A DNA stretch of 25,405 nucleotides from Promethearchaeota archaeon (GTDB lineage Archaea > Asgardarchaeota > Lokiarchaeia > Sigyniarchaeales > SOKP01): NCBI GenBank assembly GCA_016839765.1, contig JAEOTP010000008.1, forward strand, positions 1 through 25,405, in the 5' to 3' direction. The notes beneath the pieces are model-generated. The model saw nothing but the letters and a program-made list of their open reading frames with translations. It did not search any database and had not been told where the DNA came from. The position numbers were made by a program, and so were the translations under genes. Shown here piece after piece: positions 11,601-18,616 of the stretch; position 1 is the first letter of the stretch, and every line of letters begins with the position of its first letter.

Positions 11601-13487
11601 CTACGTAACACGTTTGAATAATTTATCTAACTCTTTAATTGATATAAACTTTAATGTTGGTCTTCCGTGTGCGCAATGAAAGGGATCTTTACATTTAGCC
11701 AAATCAATTAAAAGTTTTCTTATATTAACAATAGATAAATCATCTCCCCCACGAATACTTTTATGGCAGGCTAAATAATTAATAACATTGTCCTTTATTT
11801 CAGAAAAACTCTTATCTTTGCCAATTTCAGCAATATCTCCAATAATTTCTTTTATTATTTCTGCTTTTGGTAATTTTTGGATGATTGTAGGCAATTTTCT
11901 GAGAATAAAGGTATTTCCCCCGAAATGTTCAAATTTAAATCCTAATTTGTTTATTTCATTTAAATTTGAAAATAAAAAAAACCTTTCACTTGGGGATACT
12001 TCAATCTTTAGTGGGGAAATGAGCTTCTGTATTTTTTTTTTAGTATTGTCATATAATCTATGAAAATATTCCTTATTGACTCTTTCAGAAGCAGCATGCT
12101 GATCTAAAATATACATTCCCGCCTCTCCATTTTCATTTACGCCTTCTAGTAAAATATAAACCTTATTGCTCAGTTGCCCCGTTTTAGAAATTAATCGAAG
12201 TTTAGGAAAATTTTCTGAGATTATATATTTTTCCCTTAGATAAATCTCCTGTAAATATTCTTTTTCAGTAGTCTTATCGACTATTTGATCTGTTAAATCT
12301 AATTGTATTGATTTTTGAGTTTCATCTATGATGGATAAAGTTTTGTTTTCATCAGTTTCCTCAGTGATTTCCTGAATATTTTTAATAGATTCAAGAGCAT
12401 CTTCAGATTCTATCCATAAATCCAACTTAGATTTTTCATCTCTATCTGAGATAAATTGTCTAATTTCAGTTTCAAGATATTTATCTTGTTTTTTAATAAA
12501 GTATTCATCAATAAAATCTCGGATAATATTATATACCTTATTATAAATAAAATCCTCGTCTTCAAATCTGATATGTAACTTTTTCGGATGGATATTACAG
12601 TCAATAATAGCAGGATTTATATCTAAAAATAGAATAAAAAAAGGATATTTTCCTATCATCAATATATCTTTATATGCTTCTTGCACAGCCCTGAATAAGA
12701 GATCACTAGTAATATAGCGATTATTGACAAATAAACAGGAATATGTTCTACTTTTTTTAGAGATTTCAGCACTTCCAAGCAATCCATGCAATCCTAATTT
12801 ATCTTCACTATAATCAATTGGTTCCATATGTTTAGCAATAATTTTGCCATAAATATGAAAAACAGTTGTTTTTAAATCATTTTGAGCCGGACAATTAAGT
12901 ATAGTAAGGTCATTGTGGATATAGATAAAATGAAGAAATGGAAATGCTAATGAATATCTCTGTATAATGTCTGTAATATGCCCCAATTCTGTATTATCTT
13001 TTTTCAGAAACTTTTTTCTAGCTGGAATATTATAAAATAGATTTTTTACTCTAATATTAGTACCAACAGGGCAAGAAATTTCATCCTTCTGAATAGTTTT
13101 CCCTCCTTCAATAAGTAACCTTACTCCTAAGTCGTTTTCCTTAAATCTCGAAATTATTTCAACTTGGCTAACAGCAGCTATGCTTGCGAGTGCTTCTCCT
13201 CTAAAACCTAAAGTATTTAAATTATCCAAATCCTCTATTCTCCTTATTTTGCTGCTAGTATGCCTATCAAAAGCAATTTCAATTTCATCTCGTGGGATAC
13301 CTATTCCATCATCTATAACTTGTATTAAGGATTTTCCTGCCTTTTTTATAACAATACGTATTTCCTTTGCTCCCGCATCAATACTATTTTCAATTAACTC
13401 TTTCACTACATTTGCTGGTCTTTCGACAACCTCTCCTGCTGCAATCTTTTCAGCATCAATTATCTTTTGAATTCTTGAATATTTCAA
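11601..13487 (-). CDS. mutL: DNA mismatch repair endonuclease MutL (TTG start)
   Basis: IAAGEVVERP, KELIENSIDAGA and GFRGEALASI (GHKL ATPase); endonuclease motifs DQHAASERVNKE, ACHKSIR and CAHGRP. Confidence 0.97.
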   Translation of the reverse strand: MKYSRIQKIIDAEKIAAGEVVERPANVVKELIENSIDAGAKEIRIVIKKAGKSLIQVIDDGIGIPRDEIEIAFDRHTSSKIRRIEDLDNLNTLGFRGEALASIAAVSQVEIISRFKENDLGVRLLIEGGKTIQKDEISCPVGTNIRVKNLFYNIPARKKFLKKDNTELGHITDIIQRYSLAFPFLHFIYIHNDLTILNCPAQNDLKTTVFHIYGKIIAKHMEPIDYSEDKLGLHGLLGSAEISKKSRTYSCLFVNNRYITSDLLFRAVQEAYKDILMIGKYPFFILFLDINPAIIDCNIHPKKLHIRFEDEDFIYNKVYNIIRDFIDEYFIKKQDKYLETEIRQFISDRDEKSKLDLWIESEDALESIKNIQEITEETDENKTLSIIDETQKSIQLDLTDQIVDKTTEKEYLQEIYLREKYIISENFPKLRLISKTGQLSNKVYILLEGVNENGEAGMYILDQHAASERVNKEYFHRLYDNTKKKIQKLISPLKIEVSPSERFFLFSNLNEINKLGFKFEHFGGNTFILRKLPTIIQKLPKAEIIKEIIGDIAEIGKDKSFSEIKDNVINYLACHKSIRGGDDLSIVNIRKLLIDLAKCKDPFHCAHGRPTLKFISIKELDKLFKRVT

Positions 13488-13607: not shown

Positions 13608-14357
13608 TTGTTTCTTTTGGTAATTATAAAAATTTTCCAAAATAAGCAAGAAATGGGAGATGCTGCAGCACAAATGGCTGCAAAGATTCTACAAGAAGTT
13701 CTCCAATCTAAAAATAAAGCATGTTTTATCGCAGCAACAGGGGCTTCTCAATTCGAATTTTTAGATGCTCTATGTAACCATGATGAAATTAACTGGAAAA
13801 AAACCGAAATGTTTCATTTAGATGAATATTTAGGCTTACCAGCAAATCATCCCGCTAGCTTTAGGAACTATTTAAAAAAGCGGCTTGTAGATAAAGTAAA
13901 ACTTGGAAAAGTTTTTTTCATTCAAGGAGATGCCCCAAACCCAATATATGAGTGCAAACGAATTAGTGATCTTATTTCTAAAAGAAAGATTGATGTAGCT
14001 TTCGTAGGTATGGGGGAAAATGGGCACCTTGCTTTTAATGATCCTCCAGCAGATTTCAAAACCAAAGAACCTTATATTGTTGTAAGCTTGGATGCTAAAT
14101 GCCGAAAACAGCAATTTAATGAAGGATGGTTTAAATCTATTGAGGAAGTACCAAAAAAAGCAATCACTATGTCAATTAATGAGATAATGAGAGCCAAAAA
14201 TATTATTTGTACTTGTCCTGATGAAAGAAAGGCTGAAGCTGTTCGGAACTGTTTGTCTGATAAAGCTAAAATTAGTCCTGAGAATCCAGCATCAATATTG
14301 AAAAATCATCCTCGAGTAATGTGCTATTTAGATAGATATTCTTCTTCTCTTCTTTAA
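13608..14357 (+). CDS. nagB: Glucosamine-6-phosphate deaminase/isomerase family (start may be a few codons downstream)
   Basis: ATGASQ, FHLDEYLGL, HPASF and GMGENGHLAFNDP motifs. Confidence 0.88.
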   Translation: MFLLVIIKIFQNKQEMGDAAAQMAAKILQEVLQSKNKACFIAATGASQFEFLDALCNHDEINWKKTEMFHLDEYLGLPANHPASFRNYLKKRLVDKVKLGKVFFIQGDAPNPIYECKRISDLISKRKIDVAFVGMGENGHLAFNDPPADFKTKEPYIVVSLDAKCRKQQFNEGWFKSIEEVPKKAITMSINEIMRAKNIICTCPDERKAEAVRNCLSDKAKISPENPASILKNHPRVMCYLDRYSSSLL

Positions 14358-14359
14358 CT

Positions 14360-17300
14360 TTAAAGATTTTCCAATTTTTCCTTAACTTTAATTAATTTCT
14401 TCAGTGCGTCTAATGGAGTTAAAGAGTTGATGTCAATATCTGTTAGTAATTTAACTAATCTCATTAAATCTTCATCAAGTACCTTTTCTTTAACATCAAT
14501 TGGTTTAAATAAAGAGGTTTGTACATATTTTTTCGTTTTTTTAGGTTTTGACTCTTTTTTAATGCTACTAATCTCAGACTTTAATTTCTCGATTTCATAA
14601 GTTTTTTTACCTATTTCTTTTTCTTTTTCGGAAATTTCTTCTTCGCAAATACCTAATTCTTGATGCTTTGTTTCGAGTTCGAAGTTTAATTTCTCTAACT
14701 CTTTTAGCTTTTCACTTACAAGCTTATCATGATATTTTCCATAACGCGCTCCATTGCCATTTTCTCTAACTGTTGCTCTAAATGGGTCTTTTTCTTCTAT
14801 TTGATCCAAAATTTCAAAAGCTCTTATGATGACATCATCAGGAATTCCAGCTAATTTCGCTACATTTATGCCATAAGACTTATCAGTACTCCCTGGTTTT
14901 AACTTTCTTACAAAATTGATAGTTCCGTCCTCGTTTTCTATGATATCAAGATGGTAATTCTTAATTCGTGTTAAATTTATCTCTGTTAATTGATGATAGT
15001 GAGTACTAAAAAGTGTTTTAGCCTTTAATTCGTGGAGCTTTTCTAGAGTAGCCATAGCAATGCTCTGACCATCACTAGTACTTGTTCCTCTACCAAGCTC
15101 ATCAATAATAATAAGGCTTTTGGGAGTAGCATAATGCAAAATTTTCGCTGTTTCTGTCATTTCAATCATAAAGGTACTCAATCTTCTCGCTAAATCATCT
15201 GAGGCTCCTATACGCGTAAAAATTTGATCAATAACTCCTATTGTCGCCGATTTTGCAGGAACAAAACATCCCATCTGAGTAATTATGCAAATTAAAGCAA
15301 CTTGTCTCAGGAAAGTAGAATTATGATTTATAATACCATTGCCTACAAAATTATGTGAATCTGGAATGCTAAAATCATATAGCTCAGCTTTAGAATTTTT
15401 TATTTTTTCTATTTTATCATAAAAAAAATAATTTTCCTGTATATCAATTAACTCTTTATGCTCAATTTTGTATTTTTGACAATATTCAATCAATTTCTTT
15501 AATTTATCGAAAGATATATTTCTATTTTGAGGAATATAGGAATAAAAGATTCCACTAATCTTCTTATTATACTTCAATTTATCCTTATGTGGAATATTCG
15601 CACTATTTTCTACAATTCTTTTTTGAATAGTTTTTAATAAATCCTCCAAAAATGGAACACTATTGATATTTGTCATACGAGTAGGACTTGATAACTCTTT
15701 TCTCTCAGTTTTTCTCGGTAGTCTAAAATTAATTTCTTGATAGAATTTAATTGAATCTTCACCATAGAGATTTATATTATAAATAACCCTTCCAGAAGTC
15801 TTCTTAGGCTTCAAAGTACTAATTATTCCAAAATTTAATAATATAACATGGATCTGGGAAGCTAATCTCTTTGAAGTAGTAGAATAAGATACATTTCCAT
15901 ATCTCTTATCTGCTGTTCCATCTGTATCAAATAAACCCTGAAGGAAATTTATAATAATTTTCTTTGGAGCTTTAAGGATAATATCAGGAATAACCTTTTG
16001 ATGAGCTTTTACATAACCAAGCCCTAAATGAAATATGAAGTCTCTTATATAAAGACTGGAAACAAAATGCTCTGATCTATCAAATTTTTTAGATTTCACA
16101 TCATAATTAAATAGTTTTTTATTTATTCGATAAAATTCTCTTTTTAGAAATTCATCTTTCGATGTAAAACTATAACTATTTTTATATGTTAGAGTTCCAT
16201 CTCCAATTAATAATCCCATTAAATATGCTAAATCCTCATCTAATTTATCAGGAATTTTATATTTTAATACACCCTCAGGGAATACTGGTGTTGCAATTTC
16301 ATAATTGGGTGGTTCATATTCGATAGAAAGCTTATTACCCCATAAATTATTTTTTCGATTAATAATTAGAAAATCTTTTTTAGTAATTTTAGATAATTTT
16401 TTCCATTCCTCTTTACCTAAAGGTGTTCTGACTAAAATAGGATGATTTATTGACCCCTCAATTGTATATCCTAATTTTGACACAATTTTTATTGAGGGTT
16501 TTATTCCATCTGAGTAGAAATGAGAAGTTTTAACAATACCATTATTTCCAATAAGAATAATCTCTGAATCTTTAAAAGTCTCATCTAAGATGTTATCCGG
16601 TTTGAATGAGATTATAGGAAGAATCCCCTTTTCAGTAAAAAGCAATGTATCTTTATGAACACATTTACCTGCCATATTTGGACCAGTTATTACTAAAATT
16701 TGGTCTTTTTCAGTATCCAAATAGCAATCATTAGGTATAAATTTATCAGACAAATTAATTTGTTCCACAACGGCATGTCTTCCATCTTTTATAATTATCT
16801 TATCTTCATTGTTAATCACGGGGCGACAGTAATTATATTGTTCAGCAATCTCCGCAAAACATGCCATAACATCTATGAAGGCAATATTTTTTGCGGTTTC
16901 TAAAATATTTACCGTTTCTTGTAATACTTTTTCTCGTATCCTACAATAAACTTCATATTCTAAATCGTTTATCTGTTCTTCTGCTTGTATTATTTTTTCT
17001 TCAAGTTGCTTTAACTTTGCTGTGGTAAATCGTTTCGCATTTTTAAGAGTCTGCCTTTCTATAAATTCTTCAGGCAACTTTGGAATAGATTTAAGAGTAT
17101 TTAGTGTAATTTGAATATAATATCCAAGAATATTATTATGACCAACTTTGAAACCAGAATTTAACCTCCATCTCGATTTTTGCTCATTTTCATATTCAAG
17201 AACGTATTTTTTCCCGTTATTAAGGATATCTCTTAAATCATCTATTTCTTCATTAAAACCGTACTTTATAATATTTCCTTCTCTTATAGTGGTAGGTGGT

Positions 17301-18616
17301 TCGTCTTTAATTGATGCTTCGATCAAACTCCTAATTTCTCTAAAATCATTAATTTTTTCCAGAAATTTAAATATTTCAGGAATTTTAGACTTTTCTAATA
17401 CTTTTTTGATTTTAGGGATTTTTTCTAATGAATTTTTAATATTAATTAAATCTCTTGCATTTGAAGATCTAGAATAATTAATTTTATTGATATATCTCTC
17501 AAGATCTCCTGTGATTTTTAATTCTTCTCTTAACTCCGATCTTAAGAAAATATCGGCTTTAAATTTCTGGACAATATTAAGACGGTGATTTATCTTATCT
17601 ATATTAGTAAGTGGTTGTAAGATGATCTTCTTTAATAAACGAGCGCCCATTGGTGTATGAGTATGATTAAAGTTGGAGTATAATGTTGTATCTCTCCCTT
17701 TTTCCCATAATGATGTAATTAATTCTAAATTTCTTTGAGTAATATAATCTAGATGTAAAATTTCTTTTTCTTGGATTAATTTTATTTCAAAAATATTTGG
17801 TAAAACATCTCTTTGGGTTTCTTTTAAAAATGCTAATAACCCACCAGCTGCTTGAATTGCTAATGATTTTTGTTCCAAATCAAATCCTTTAAGATTTGAA
17901 ACTTTGAAATGTCGCGTTATTAAAGAATGGGCCTCATCGTAATTGAAAATATAATCATCATATGGTTTAATTAACGCATCATTTAAATCAGTAATTAACA
18001 AAAATAGTCTCTCATCCTTCTTTAACTCTGAAGGGACAACTACTTCAACTGGATCGTATTGAGCAAAAACGCTTAATAGTTTTTCCAGTGGATCTTTTTC
18101 ATTCATAGAAAATTCAGTCGTTATAAATTCACCAGTAGAAAGATCCGCAAAGGCAATCCCAAAACCAGTTCTTTGTCGAATTATCGAACAAATATAGTTA
18201 TTTTCATTAGATTTTAACATATCTGATTCAATAATTGTACCTGGAGAAAGAATTCTTACAACTCCTCGTTTTACAATTCTTCCTTTCACTGTAGATGGAT
18301 CCTCTAACTGATCAACCAAAACCACCGTTTGTCCTAAATTTACTAAATTTTTTAAATAATTACCTGCGTGATGAGGGATGCCAGCTAGAGGATAGGAATC
18401 CTCTCCAAACTTTCTCTTAGTTAAAGTAATGCCTAATAGATTAGATACTCTTACAGCGTCCTCATAGAAAAATTCATAAAAATCTCCCATTCTATAAGCT
18501 AAAATATGTTCAGGATATTTTTTCTTGTATTGCTCCTTGACACTATACCAATGTTTCATCATTGGGGTTAGATCTTTTAGATTAAGTTCCTCTATTGAGA
18601 CTTTATCCTTCATCAT
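14360..18616 (-). CDS. mutS: DNA mismatch repair protein MutS (MutS1 type) precursor containing an intein; ~970 aa after splicing
   Basis: TPMMKHW, mismatch-binding GDFYEFF, TPMGARLL, Walker A GPNMAGK|ST split by the intein, STFMIEM, DELGRGTS, STHYH and SYGINVAKLAG. Confidence 0.97.
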   Translation of the reverse strand: MMKDKVSIEELNLKDLTPMMKHWYSVKEQYKKKYPEHILAYRMGDFYEFFYEDAVRVSNLLGITLTKRKFGEDSYPLAGIPHHAGNYLKNLVNLGQTVVLVDQLEDPSTVKGRIVKRGVVRILSPGTIIESDMLKSNENNYICSIIRQRTGFGIAFADLSTGEFITTEFSMNEKDPLEKLLSVFAQYDPVEVVVPSELKKDERLFLLITDLNDALIKPYDDYIFNYDEAHSLITRHFKVSNLKGFDLEQKSLAIQAAGGLLAFLKETQRDVLPNIFEIKLIQEKEILHLDYITQRNLELITSLWEKGRDTTLYSNFNHTHTPMGARLLKKIILQPLTNIDKINHRLNIVQKFKADIFLRSELREELKITGDLERYINKINYSRSSNARDLINIKNSLEKIPKIKKVLEKSKIPEIFKFLEKINDFREIRSLIEASIKDEPPTTIREGNIIKYGFNEEIDDLRDILNNGKKYVLEYENEQKSRWRLNSGFKVGHNNILGYYIQITLNTLKSIPKLPEEFIERQTLKNAKRFTTAKLKQLEEKIIQAEEQINDLEYEVYCRIREKVLQETVNILETAKNIAFIDVMACFAEIAEQYNYCRPVINNEDKIIIKDGRHAVVEQINLSDKFIPNDCYLDTEKDQILVITGPNMAGKCVHKDTLLFTEKGILPIISFKPDNILDETFKDSEIILIGNNGIVKTSHFYSDGIKPSIKIVSKLGYTIEGSINHPILVRTPLGKEEWKKLSKITKKDFLIINRKNNLWGNKLSIEYEPPNYEIATPVFPEGVLKYKIPDKLDEDLAYLMGLLIGDGTLTYKNSYSFTSKDEFLKREFYRINKKLFNYDVKSKKFDRSEHFVSSLYIRDFIFHLGLGYVKAHQKVIPDIILKAPKKIIINFLQGLFDTDGTADKRYGNVSYSTTSKRLASQIHVILLNFGIISTLKPKKTSGRVIYNINLYGEDSIKFYQEINFRLPRKTERKELSSPTRMTNINSVPFLEDLLKTIQKRIVENSANIPHKDKLKYNKKISGIFYSYIPQNRNISFDKLKKLIEYCQKYKIEHKELIDIQENYFFYDKIEKIKNSKAELYDFSIPDSHNFVGNGIINHNSTFLRQVALICIITQMGCFVPAKSATIGVIDQIFTRIGASDDLARRLSTFMIEMTETAKILHYATPKSLIIIDELGRGTSTSDGQSIAMATLEKLHELKAKTLFSTHYHQLTEINLTRIKNYHLDIIENEDGTINFVRKLKPGSTDKSYGINVAKLAGIPDDVIIRAFEILDQIEEKDPFRATVRENGNGARYGKYHDKLVSEKLKELEKLNFELETKHQELGICEEEISEKEKEIGKKTYEIEKLKSEISSIKKESKPKKTKKYVQTSLFKPIDVKEKVLDEDLMRLVKLLTDIDINSLTPLDALKKLIKVKEKLENL
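15320..16663 (-). mobile_element. Intein (448 aa) with LAGLIDADG homing endonuclease, inserted in the MutS P-loop
   Basis: Begins at Cys (CVHKDTLLFTEKG) right after GPNMAGK; block B SINHPILV; LAGLIDADG motifs LAYLMGLLIGDG and FLQGLFDTDG; ends YDFSIPDSHNFVGNGIINHN with +1 Ser. Confidence 0.96.

Follow-up and report, generated by a model that had tools for sequence, protein, structure and literature searches.

Inteins cluster in P-loops, and this clustering has been argued to hint at function (Novikova et al, 2016; PMC4760082). TliVMA, the intein in the A-ATPase subunit A of Thermococcus litoralis, occupies the P-loop site VMA-b (PDB 7qss/7qsu), is built from a Hint domain, a homing endonuclease and an accessory domain, and cuts its own homing site in vitro (Beyer and Iwai, 2022; PMC8966425). 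Other inteins described from the same class of site, between Lys and Ser/Thr of a P-loop, are DnaB-b, MCM-a, RFC-a and Pho RadA. Novikova et al (2016) name many P-loop hosts in their main text, and MutS is not among them. Two MutS-like (MutS7) inteins from Mimiviridae are listed by Green, Novikova and Belfort (2018; PMC5784728), and no others are cited in a review on the MutS genes of plants from 2024; they are the only published MutS-family inteins found in the searchable literature, in which no description of a prokaryotic MutS intein was found. The subject here is an intein in the gene for MutS1, a mismatch-repair ATPase of bacterial type, of a Promethearchaeota archaeon, located on a DNA stretch of 25,405 nucleotides (contig JAEOTP010000008.1 of assembly GCA_016839765.1; hereafter, the window). 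Unlike this cellular MutS1 intein, those of Mimiviridae reside in the MutS7 proteins of giant viruses.

Anatomy and predicted fold of the MutS1 intein

A first-pass annotation, made from the sequence alone, had placed a full-length homing-endonuclease intein inside the Walker A motif of MutS. Its boundaries proved exact to the base (Table 1), and all splicing residues as well as both LAGLIDADG aspartates are indeed intact; left unstated was that the element is encoded on the minus strand, in the reading frame of the host gene, the plus strand across 15290-16700 being packed with stop codons. The precursor contains all five Pfam MutS domains, with MutS_V spanning residues 1099-1274, and it matches the NCBIfam MutS equivalogs NF003810 (898 bits; cut-off 480) and TIGR01070 (826 bits; cut-off 642). 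This match consists of two stretches, as it stops at residue 652 and restarts at ∼1100. The proteins closest to the precursor carry the names MutS of Promethearchaeota, Hodarchaeota and other Asgard groups, in agreement with the Asgard host assumed in the first-pass annotation. The intervening sequence begins with CVHKD, ends with GIINHN and sits between the lysine and the serine of Walker A (GPNMAGK/C...HN/STFLRQ; flanks in the precursor, KDQILVITGPNMAGK and STFLRQVALICIITQ). Excising its 448 residues restores exactly the GPNMAGKSTFLRQ of intein-less relatives.

Both functional parts of the element are recognized by profiles: Intein_splicing (PF14890) scores 57.1 bits (cut-off 35.8), LAGLIDADG_3 (PF14528) 72 bits (cut-off 22.5), and the score of the NCBIfam model intein_Cterm also exceeds its cut-off. 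Two alignments were used for comparison, one of nine Asgard alleles (A1) and one of 93 MutS inteins (A2). Cys1, His74, Asp430, His447 and Asn448 are invariant in the latter (93/93), the +1 residue is serine in 92 of 92 family members, and position 71 of block B, a serine in the window copy, is threonine in 81 and serine in 12 of the 93. Lys223 is found in 91 of the 93 and is kept in the window copy, which corresponds to the consensus at 92 of the 95 columns that are conserved to at least 90%; its three deviations are conservative. With 26.3%, the GC content of the intein is close to that of the extein (30.4%), a small difference which is of no help in tracing the origin of the element.

The AlphaFold2 model of the intein, calculated from the 93-row alignment, reached a predicted local distance difference test score (pLDDT) of 95.8 and a predicted template modeling score (pTM) of 0.93; it supersedes a run with only nine sequences (pLDDT 64). 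In the model, the Hint domain is formed by strands within residues 1-101 and 414-447, the LAGLIDADG core spans residues ∼140-311, in which the alpha-beta-beta-alpha-beta-beta-alpha pattern occurs twice, and a helical accessory domain follows (316-411). A Foldseek search of the PDB returned TliVMA first (7qss; E 1e-28; template modeling scores 0.70/0.72), with PhoVMA, PI-PkoII, PI-PfuI, PI-SceI and also I-DmoI among the further matches, and phmmer against PDB sequences likewise placed the TliVMA/PhoVMA intein chains on top (E 7e-16 over the endonuclease core). TliVMA and the MutS intein have in common the three-part architecture, insertion in a P-loop, both catalytic aspartates and a similar size (429 versus 448 residues). 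They differ in their hosts, an A/V-ATPase versus the ABC-like ATPase of MutS, and in the structural alignment only ∼22% of the residues are identical; accessory domains are known to differ among inteins of this type. Moreover, cleavage by TliVMA has been seen in vitro, whereas for the MutS intein it is predicted from sequence and modeled fold. On these grounds, the element is very probably a canonical class 1 bifunctional intein consisting of Hint domain, LAGLIDADG endonuclease and helical accessory domain.

Distribution, horizontal movement and the adjacent serine codon

The presence/absence survey of Asgard MutS proposed in the first-pass annotation was carried out with the intein as the query. 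Among 42 species representatives of the genus, it was present only in the genome containing the window (3.32 Mb in 96 contigs; 96% complete), and a MutS-type copy (E≤1e-150) was found in 10 of 400 genomes of the phylum, belonging to three families. In all 40 other genomes inspected (24 of the genus and 16 of the order), MutS aligned in pieces that skip the intein, and the two pieces abut wherever the gene is complete. By three profiles (PF14890, TIGR01443 and TIGR01445), the element is the only intein in its genome. The genus as a whole is intein-poor; 14 of the 42 genomes have a match to an intein C terminus, and the 13 other than the window genome do not contain copies of the MutS intein.

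Intein-less alleles, which that annotation had proposed to look for, do exist. Five clusters of intein-less proteins of 972 residues are 96-97.5% identical to the spliced MutS product. The corresponding DNA was taken from related loci on metagenome contigs, one of which (L025; Ga0209635_10005643) encodes a sixth intein-less protein, 99% identical to P0005. Nucleotide identity between L025 and the window is 97.5% over 4954 nt on the N-terminal side, reaching to the final base before the intein, and 95.4% over 3854 nt on the C-terminal side, beginning 2 nt past it. The two loci are thus syntenic and differ by an exact 1344-bp indel. In contrast to this close similarity of the host genes, the closest other copy of the intein is only 74% identical to that of the window. 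Judged by this comparison, the intein entered this lineage recently, when it had already parted from a relative with which it still shares 95-97% of its DNA sequence.

Homologous inteins at the same position are far more common in sequence databases than in the literature. Searching with the intein only yielded 301 proteins (E≤1e-10). All 120 best-listed matches contain MutS domains, and in all but two of these 120 and three further intein-bearing MutS proteins, GxNxxGK directly precedes the cysteine. The same MutS site is filled by a homologous intein in at least 110 protein clusters (90% identity) of archaea and bacteria. The names on the archaeal proteins are those of Thor-, Hermod-, Heimdall- and Hodarchaeota and of Woesearchaeota; those on the bacterial ones are Latescibacterota, Armatimonadota, Acidobacteriota, Bipolaricaulota, Methylococcaceae and Anaerolineae. 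The view that MutS1 is an uncommon intein host therefore holds for searchable papers only, and the novelty of the site, which the first-pass annotation had made dependent on its not being catalogued already, is largely lost. Judged from these alignments, a large allelic intein family spanning both prokaryotic domains resides at exactly this MutS site; it is abundant in databases and, as far as the literature is searchable, unpublished. Since annotation pipelines already name the intein-bearing proteins MutS, no practical annotation problem arises.

Most members of the family are 435-448 residues long and end with HN/S(T/V). Besides the window copy, those of 448 residues are P0002, P0003, P0004, P0017, P0023, P0121, P0122 and the bacterial P0223, for five of which identities were compared. 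The allelic inteins, for example those in MutS of Promethearchaeota LW30_13 (JAHPYZ010000040.1) and Hodarchaeota DZ1B.236, share with the window copy the identical insertion point (GxNxxGK/C...HN/S), the conserved residues and homology over the full length (35-74% identity). The window copy nevertheless represents a distinct lineage, being at most 74% identical to any other and the sole one in its genus. Unlike it, a few allelic inteins are shortened or substituted at a catalytic aspartate. The few of 363-377 residues indicate a shortened endonuclease, and two Asgard alleles carry asparagine instead of the catalytic aspartate, one in motif 1 (L016:1501-2844) and one in motif 2 (L022:1501-2820). 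Because of these asparagine alleles and the bacterial alleles shortened to 363-377 residues, different stages of the homing cycle appear to coexist in the family.

The relationships within the family do not fully follow those of the hosts. P0017 has the most distant extein (61-63% identity) among the five closest intein-bearing relatives, yet the intein of P0017 shares 82-86% identity with those of P0003, P0004 and P0023. Likewise, some proteins of Thor-, Hermod- and Hodarchaeota have inteins that are 54-60% identical to that of the window, but exteins that are just 41-44% identical. In maximum-likelihood trees of 89 full-length pairs of intein and extein, the inteins were closer to each other than the exteins in 94% of the 3916 pairwise comparisons; the topologies disagree, the nearest intein to that of the window being P0017 and the nearest extein P0002. 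As read from these trees, the element spreads horizontally among mutS genes that are themselves divergent.

The inteins next in similarity, at 25-34% identity, occupy the Walker A site GK/T or GK/S of RecA, FtsH, Clp-type ATPases and helicases, the majority of them from Patescibacteria and Gammaproteobacteria. Their P-loop position is equivalent, but they have other hosts, mostly a +1 threonine, and are too diverged to be considered alleles. The contig scan with A1 and two peptide patterns returned such other-host P-loop inteins together with the Asgard MutS inteins, not the bacterial MutS inteins. A number of them (L114-L123 and others; Walker A GK/T; 30-34% identical to the window intein) all end with GNGF(I/V)NHN. 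These shared ends suggest that one intein lineage may have hopped between the P-loops of unrelated ATPases.

The empty allele also reveals what the insertion may have changed beside it. The first-pass annotation had predicted the intein-less target as .../TCTACTTTC... (...AAA/TCT...). In the nearest relatives, the empty site found in nature reads ...GGTAAA/AGTACTTTC... (in longer form, GGTCCAAATATGGCAGGTAAA/AGTACTTTCCTGAGACAA), which differs from that prediction at the codon for the +1 serine: it is TCT in the window, but AGT in L025 and the four next-closest relatives of the genus. This difference has a counterpart in the family. All nine distinct intein-bearing alleles have TCN at +1, whereas the 89 empty alleles comprise 67 with AGY and 22 with TCN (Fisher p 1.3e-5, a value that ignores relatedness). 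Within 24 nt on either side, no other position shows a comparably strong association; at three third-codon positions p is between 0.001 and 0.02, but for a base that is in the minority even among the intein-bearing alleles. Contrasts between nearest neighbors agree for the window, whose five relatives have AGT, and for L103/L016, whose relatives have AGC, and are uninformative for L014, L015 and L022. The test is limited to nine archaeal alleles because the contig scan missed the bacterial MutS inteins.

Apart from this codon, little sets the DNA around the insertion apart. Changes that the window shares with no relative and that lie at most 160 nt from the junction are limited to +1, +2 and +40. 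The raw density of mismatches with L025 does rise, from about -250 to +1000, and a long co-conversion tract was considered as its cause; this was rejected because, after polarization against five relatives, changes unique to the window proved no more frequent there than those unique to L025, except for +1/+2. In our reading, the element would bring its own adjacent codon (AGT to TCT) and a few flanking bases at most. The adjacent codon would travel with the element because repair copies the bases beside the break from the donor, and the rest of the conversion tract would be very short because divergent donors and recipients resemble each other only in the DNA coding for the P-loop. Alternatively, the nuclease could require TCN, so that alleles with AGY would be immune; this is less parsimonious, as it would demand a prior double substitution in the lineage of the window. 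For the window copy, which is otherwise an ordinary intein, what is new here is this evidence that the invasion was recent and its conversion footprint minimal.

Probable mobility of the intein and alternative explanations

In the proposed course of events, to which, taken together with the recent gain, we give a probability of roughly 0.85, the gene would be translated as a precursor of 1418 residues, in which Cys1 and the +1 serine, aided by His74, Asp430, His447 and Asn448, would perform the standard four-step splicing reaction. The intein of 448 residues would be released and GPNMAGK joined to STFLRQ, so that Walker A is rebuilt in a normal MutS of 970 residues. Once free, the intein would serve as a homing endonuclease and attack intein-less mutS alleles within the conserved DNA coding for the P-loop, and repair off an intein-bearing copy would insert the element. 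In the window lineage, it would have arrived from an unsampled donor, with a few flanking bases at most.

Selection on the endonuclease is in keeping with such a course. Pairwise ratios of nonsynonymous to synonymous substitution rates (dN/dS; Nei-Gojobori) range from 0.10 to 0.18 in the endonuclease part and from 0.11 to 0.22 in the Hint part, values which are rough because dS is near saturation (about 1-2). Even so, the endonuclease is under purifying selection and clearly as constrained as the splicing domain, which is expected only if homing keeps being selected. The first-pass annotation had regarded the element as possibly still mobile, and this gains from the comparison: because of its sporadic distribution, the near-identical empty allele, the purifying selection and the intact catalytic residues, the intein is probably still mobile.

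Several points weigh against this account. Beside the roughness of the dN/dS values, the association with TCN rests on nine alleles that are phylogenetically not independent, and no extended co-conversion tract was found beyond +1/+2 and perhaps +40, so that the switch of the codon could instead reflect a requirement of the target site or coincidence. The actual donor is unsampled, and both splicing and cleavage are deduced from the primary structure and the modeled fold.

Of the competing explanations, that of an immobile relic fares best, although we regard it as unlikely. According to it, splicing was kept of necessity while the endonuclease no longer cuts, which would place the element at the end of the homing cycle. 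Endonuclease activity is not readable from a sequence, the decay of nested endonucleases is demonstrated by PhoVMA (PMC8966425), and some alleles of the family have asparagine, glycine or alanine at a catalytic aspartate or a shortened domain. The window copy, however, keeps Asp155, Asp248, Lys223 and nearly all highly conserved positions, its seemingly recent gain would have left little time for decay, and the endonuclease domain is under purifying selection across the family.

The second explanation, raised in the first-pass annotation, is that the intein was co-opted as a post-translational switch. Splicing that depends on redox state, temperature, metal ions or DNA would tune MutS activity, and the environment would thereby set both the mutation rate and how strongly homeologous recombination is barred. 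Inteins known to splice conditionally include Pho RadA and the redox-trapped Mma PolII. The unspliced precursor should almost certainly be ATPase-dead, because 448 residues split its Walker A motif. The intein contains only two cysteines, Cys1 and Cys395 (within IEYCQKY of the accessory domain; 15479-15481, minus strand), the second of which is conserved to at least 90% in the family. Furthermore, other P-loop inteins, such as Pho RadA (PMC4513877), are documented to splice conditionally, and the clustering of inteins in P-loops has been taken as a hint of function (PMC4760082). Despite these arguments, a switch seems improbable. A useful regulator should persist, but the element occurs only sporadically (in 1/42 of the genus), and relatives that are nearly identical thrive without it. 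All catalytic residues are canonical, the N-extein has no cysteine near the junction that could form a redox trap, and the decayed endonucleases of some family members (363-377 residues) fit a homing cycle rather than domestication. Horizontal transfer and selection on the endonuclease are the pattern of a selfish element. The idea of a mutation- or recombination-rate switch was conjecture, and nothing found in the sequence points to conditional over constitutive splicing; the element is best read as selfish, tolerated since it would splice, rather than as a regulator.

A different way in which residence in mutS might not be neutral is also conceivable, albeit as a long shot: MutS activity could fall while the precursor matures or when splicing is slowed, which would aid the spread of the intein between lineages. 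If true, mismatch repair would hinder recombination between diverged DNA less, lowering the very barrier that a homing intein must cross on its way between mutS genes of only 40-75% identity, and mutation and recombination rates of the host would be transiently raised.

That the intein is instead ancestral in the Asgard lineage and vertically inherited, with the empty alleles resulting from repeated precise deletions, is highly improbable. Precise loss by gene conversion or by events resembling reverse transcription is conceivable, and intein and extein identities do correlate overall (r = 0.82 to the window). Yet dozens of independent exact losses would be needed (41 of 42 genomes of the genus and ∼390 of 400 of the phylum are intein-less), intein distances are mostly smaller than those of the host genes, with discordant topologies, and a flanking serine codon unlike that of all close relatives fits import into the window lineage, not loss in the others. 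An artifact of assembly or binning, by which a chimeric contig put a foreign intein into mutS, is next to negligible; although the assembly consists of 96 contigs and the intein-bearing protein occurs on one contig only, the insertion is base-exact and in frame, its removal restores Walker A, both flanks are syntenic with L025 for several kilobases, and the same architecture is found in more than 100 independent assemblies.

Genomic setting and significance

The coordinates of the host gene, of its intein and of mutL are listed in Table 1. Gene mutL, coding for the partner of MutS, lies 0.9 kb downstream of mutS on the same strand, with one plus-strand gene in between. Because this opposite-strand gene (13608-14357; glucosamine-6-phosphate isomerase/6-phosphogluconolactonase family) separates them, mutS and mutL are neighbors and do not form one operon. 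The C-terminal tail of MutS contains QTSLF (residues 1366-1370; 14507-14521, minus strand), which resembles the bacterial beta-clamp-binding motif QxxLF, and, following it within the last ∼25 residues, the end motif LTPLDAL. Both are kept in the consensus of 93 MutS sequences, yet the host is an archaeon, which uses PCNA. Elsewhere in the genome (contig C73:13713-14186, minus strand), there is a separate free-standing open reading frame for an endonuclease of the LAGLIDADG_3 type (283 residues).

Table 1. Positions in the window of mutS, the parts of its intein, and mutL.
Feature	Position	Strand	Evidence
mutS (MutS1) precursor gene, 1418 aa including the intein	14360..18616	-	Open reading frame and translation; Pfam MutS_I-V; NCBIfam MutS equivalog, 898 bits
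N-extein, aa 1-651, up to and including GPNMAGK of Walker A	16664..18616	-	Translation; 97.5% nucleotide identity to L025 up to the intein
Intein, 448 aa (MutS aa 652-1099), 1344 bp, class 1, nested LAGLIDADG endonuclease (predicted)	15320..16663	-	Pfam, NCBIfam, alignments, AlphaFold2
Splicing block A (CVHKDTLLFTEKG), Cys1 nucleophile	16625..16663	-	Cys1 in 93/93 MutS inteins
Splicing block B (GYTIEGSINHPILVR), S71-x-x-H74 (S71-I-N-H74)	16427..16471	-	Family alignment
LAGLIDADG homing-endonuclease core, intein aa ∼140-311	15731..16246	-	Pfam LAGLIDADG_3, phmmer, AlphaFold2 model, dN/dS
LAGLIDADG motif 1 (DLAYLMGLLIGDGTL), LLIGD155G, catalytic Asp155	16190..16234	-	Asp in 90/93
LAGLIDADG motif 2 (INFLQGLFDTDGT), LFDTD248G, catalytic Asp248	15914..15952	-	Asp in 89/93
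Helical accessory domain, intein aa 316-411, between endonuclease core and C-terminal Hint strands; contains Cys395	15431..15718	-	AlphaFold2 helices
Splicing blocks F and G (...AELYDFSIPDSHNFVGNGIINHN), Asp430, His447, Asn448	15320..15424	-	93/93; NCBIfam intein_Cterm
+1 Ser codon TCT, for the Ser of Walker A that is also a splicing nucleophile	15317..15319	-	Two bases different from AGT of the nearest intein-less alleles
C-extein, aa 1100-1418 and stop codon; remainder of ATPase domain V and C-terminal tail	14360..15319	-	
mutL, partner of MutS	11601..13487	-	Pfam DNA_mis_repair, MutL_C, HATPase_c_3

With occupied and empty alleles that are a few percent apart, the locus offers a clean natural case of intein invasion close to the event, and this in Asgard archaea. 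Close to the insertion, only the adjacent serine codon, switched at two bases, is specific to the window, and the empty sites with AGT and TCT constitute a defined pair of substrates with which target specificity could be distinguished from co-conversion. The family to which the element belongs occupies the ATP-binding loop of a protein central to mismatch repair and anti-recombination, and a descriptive survey of it would fill a gap in the catalogue of inteins.

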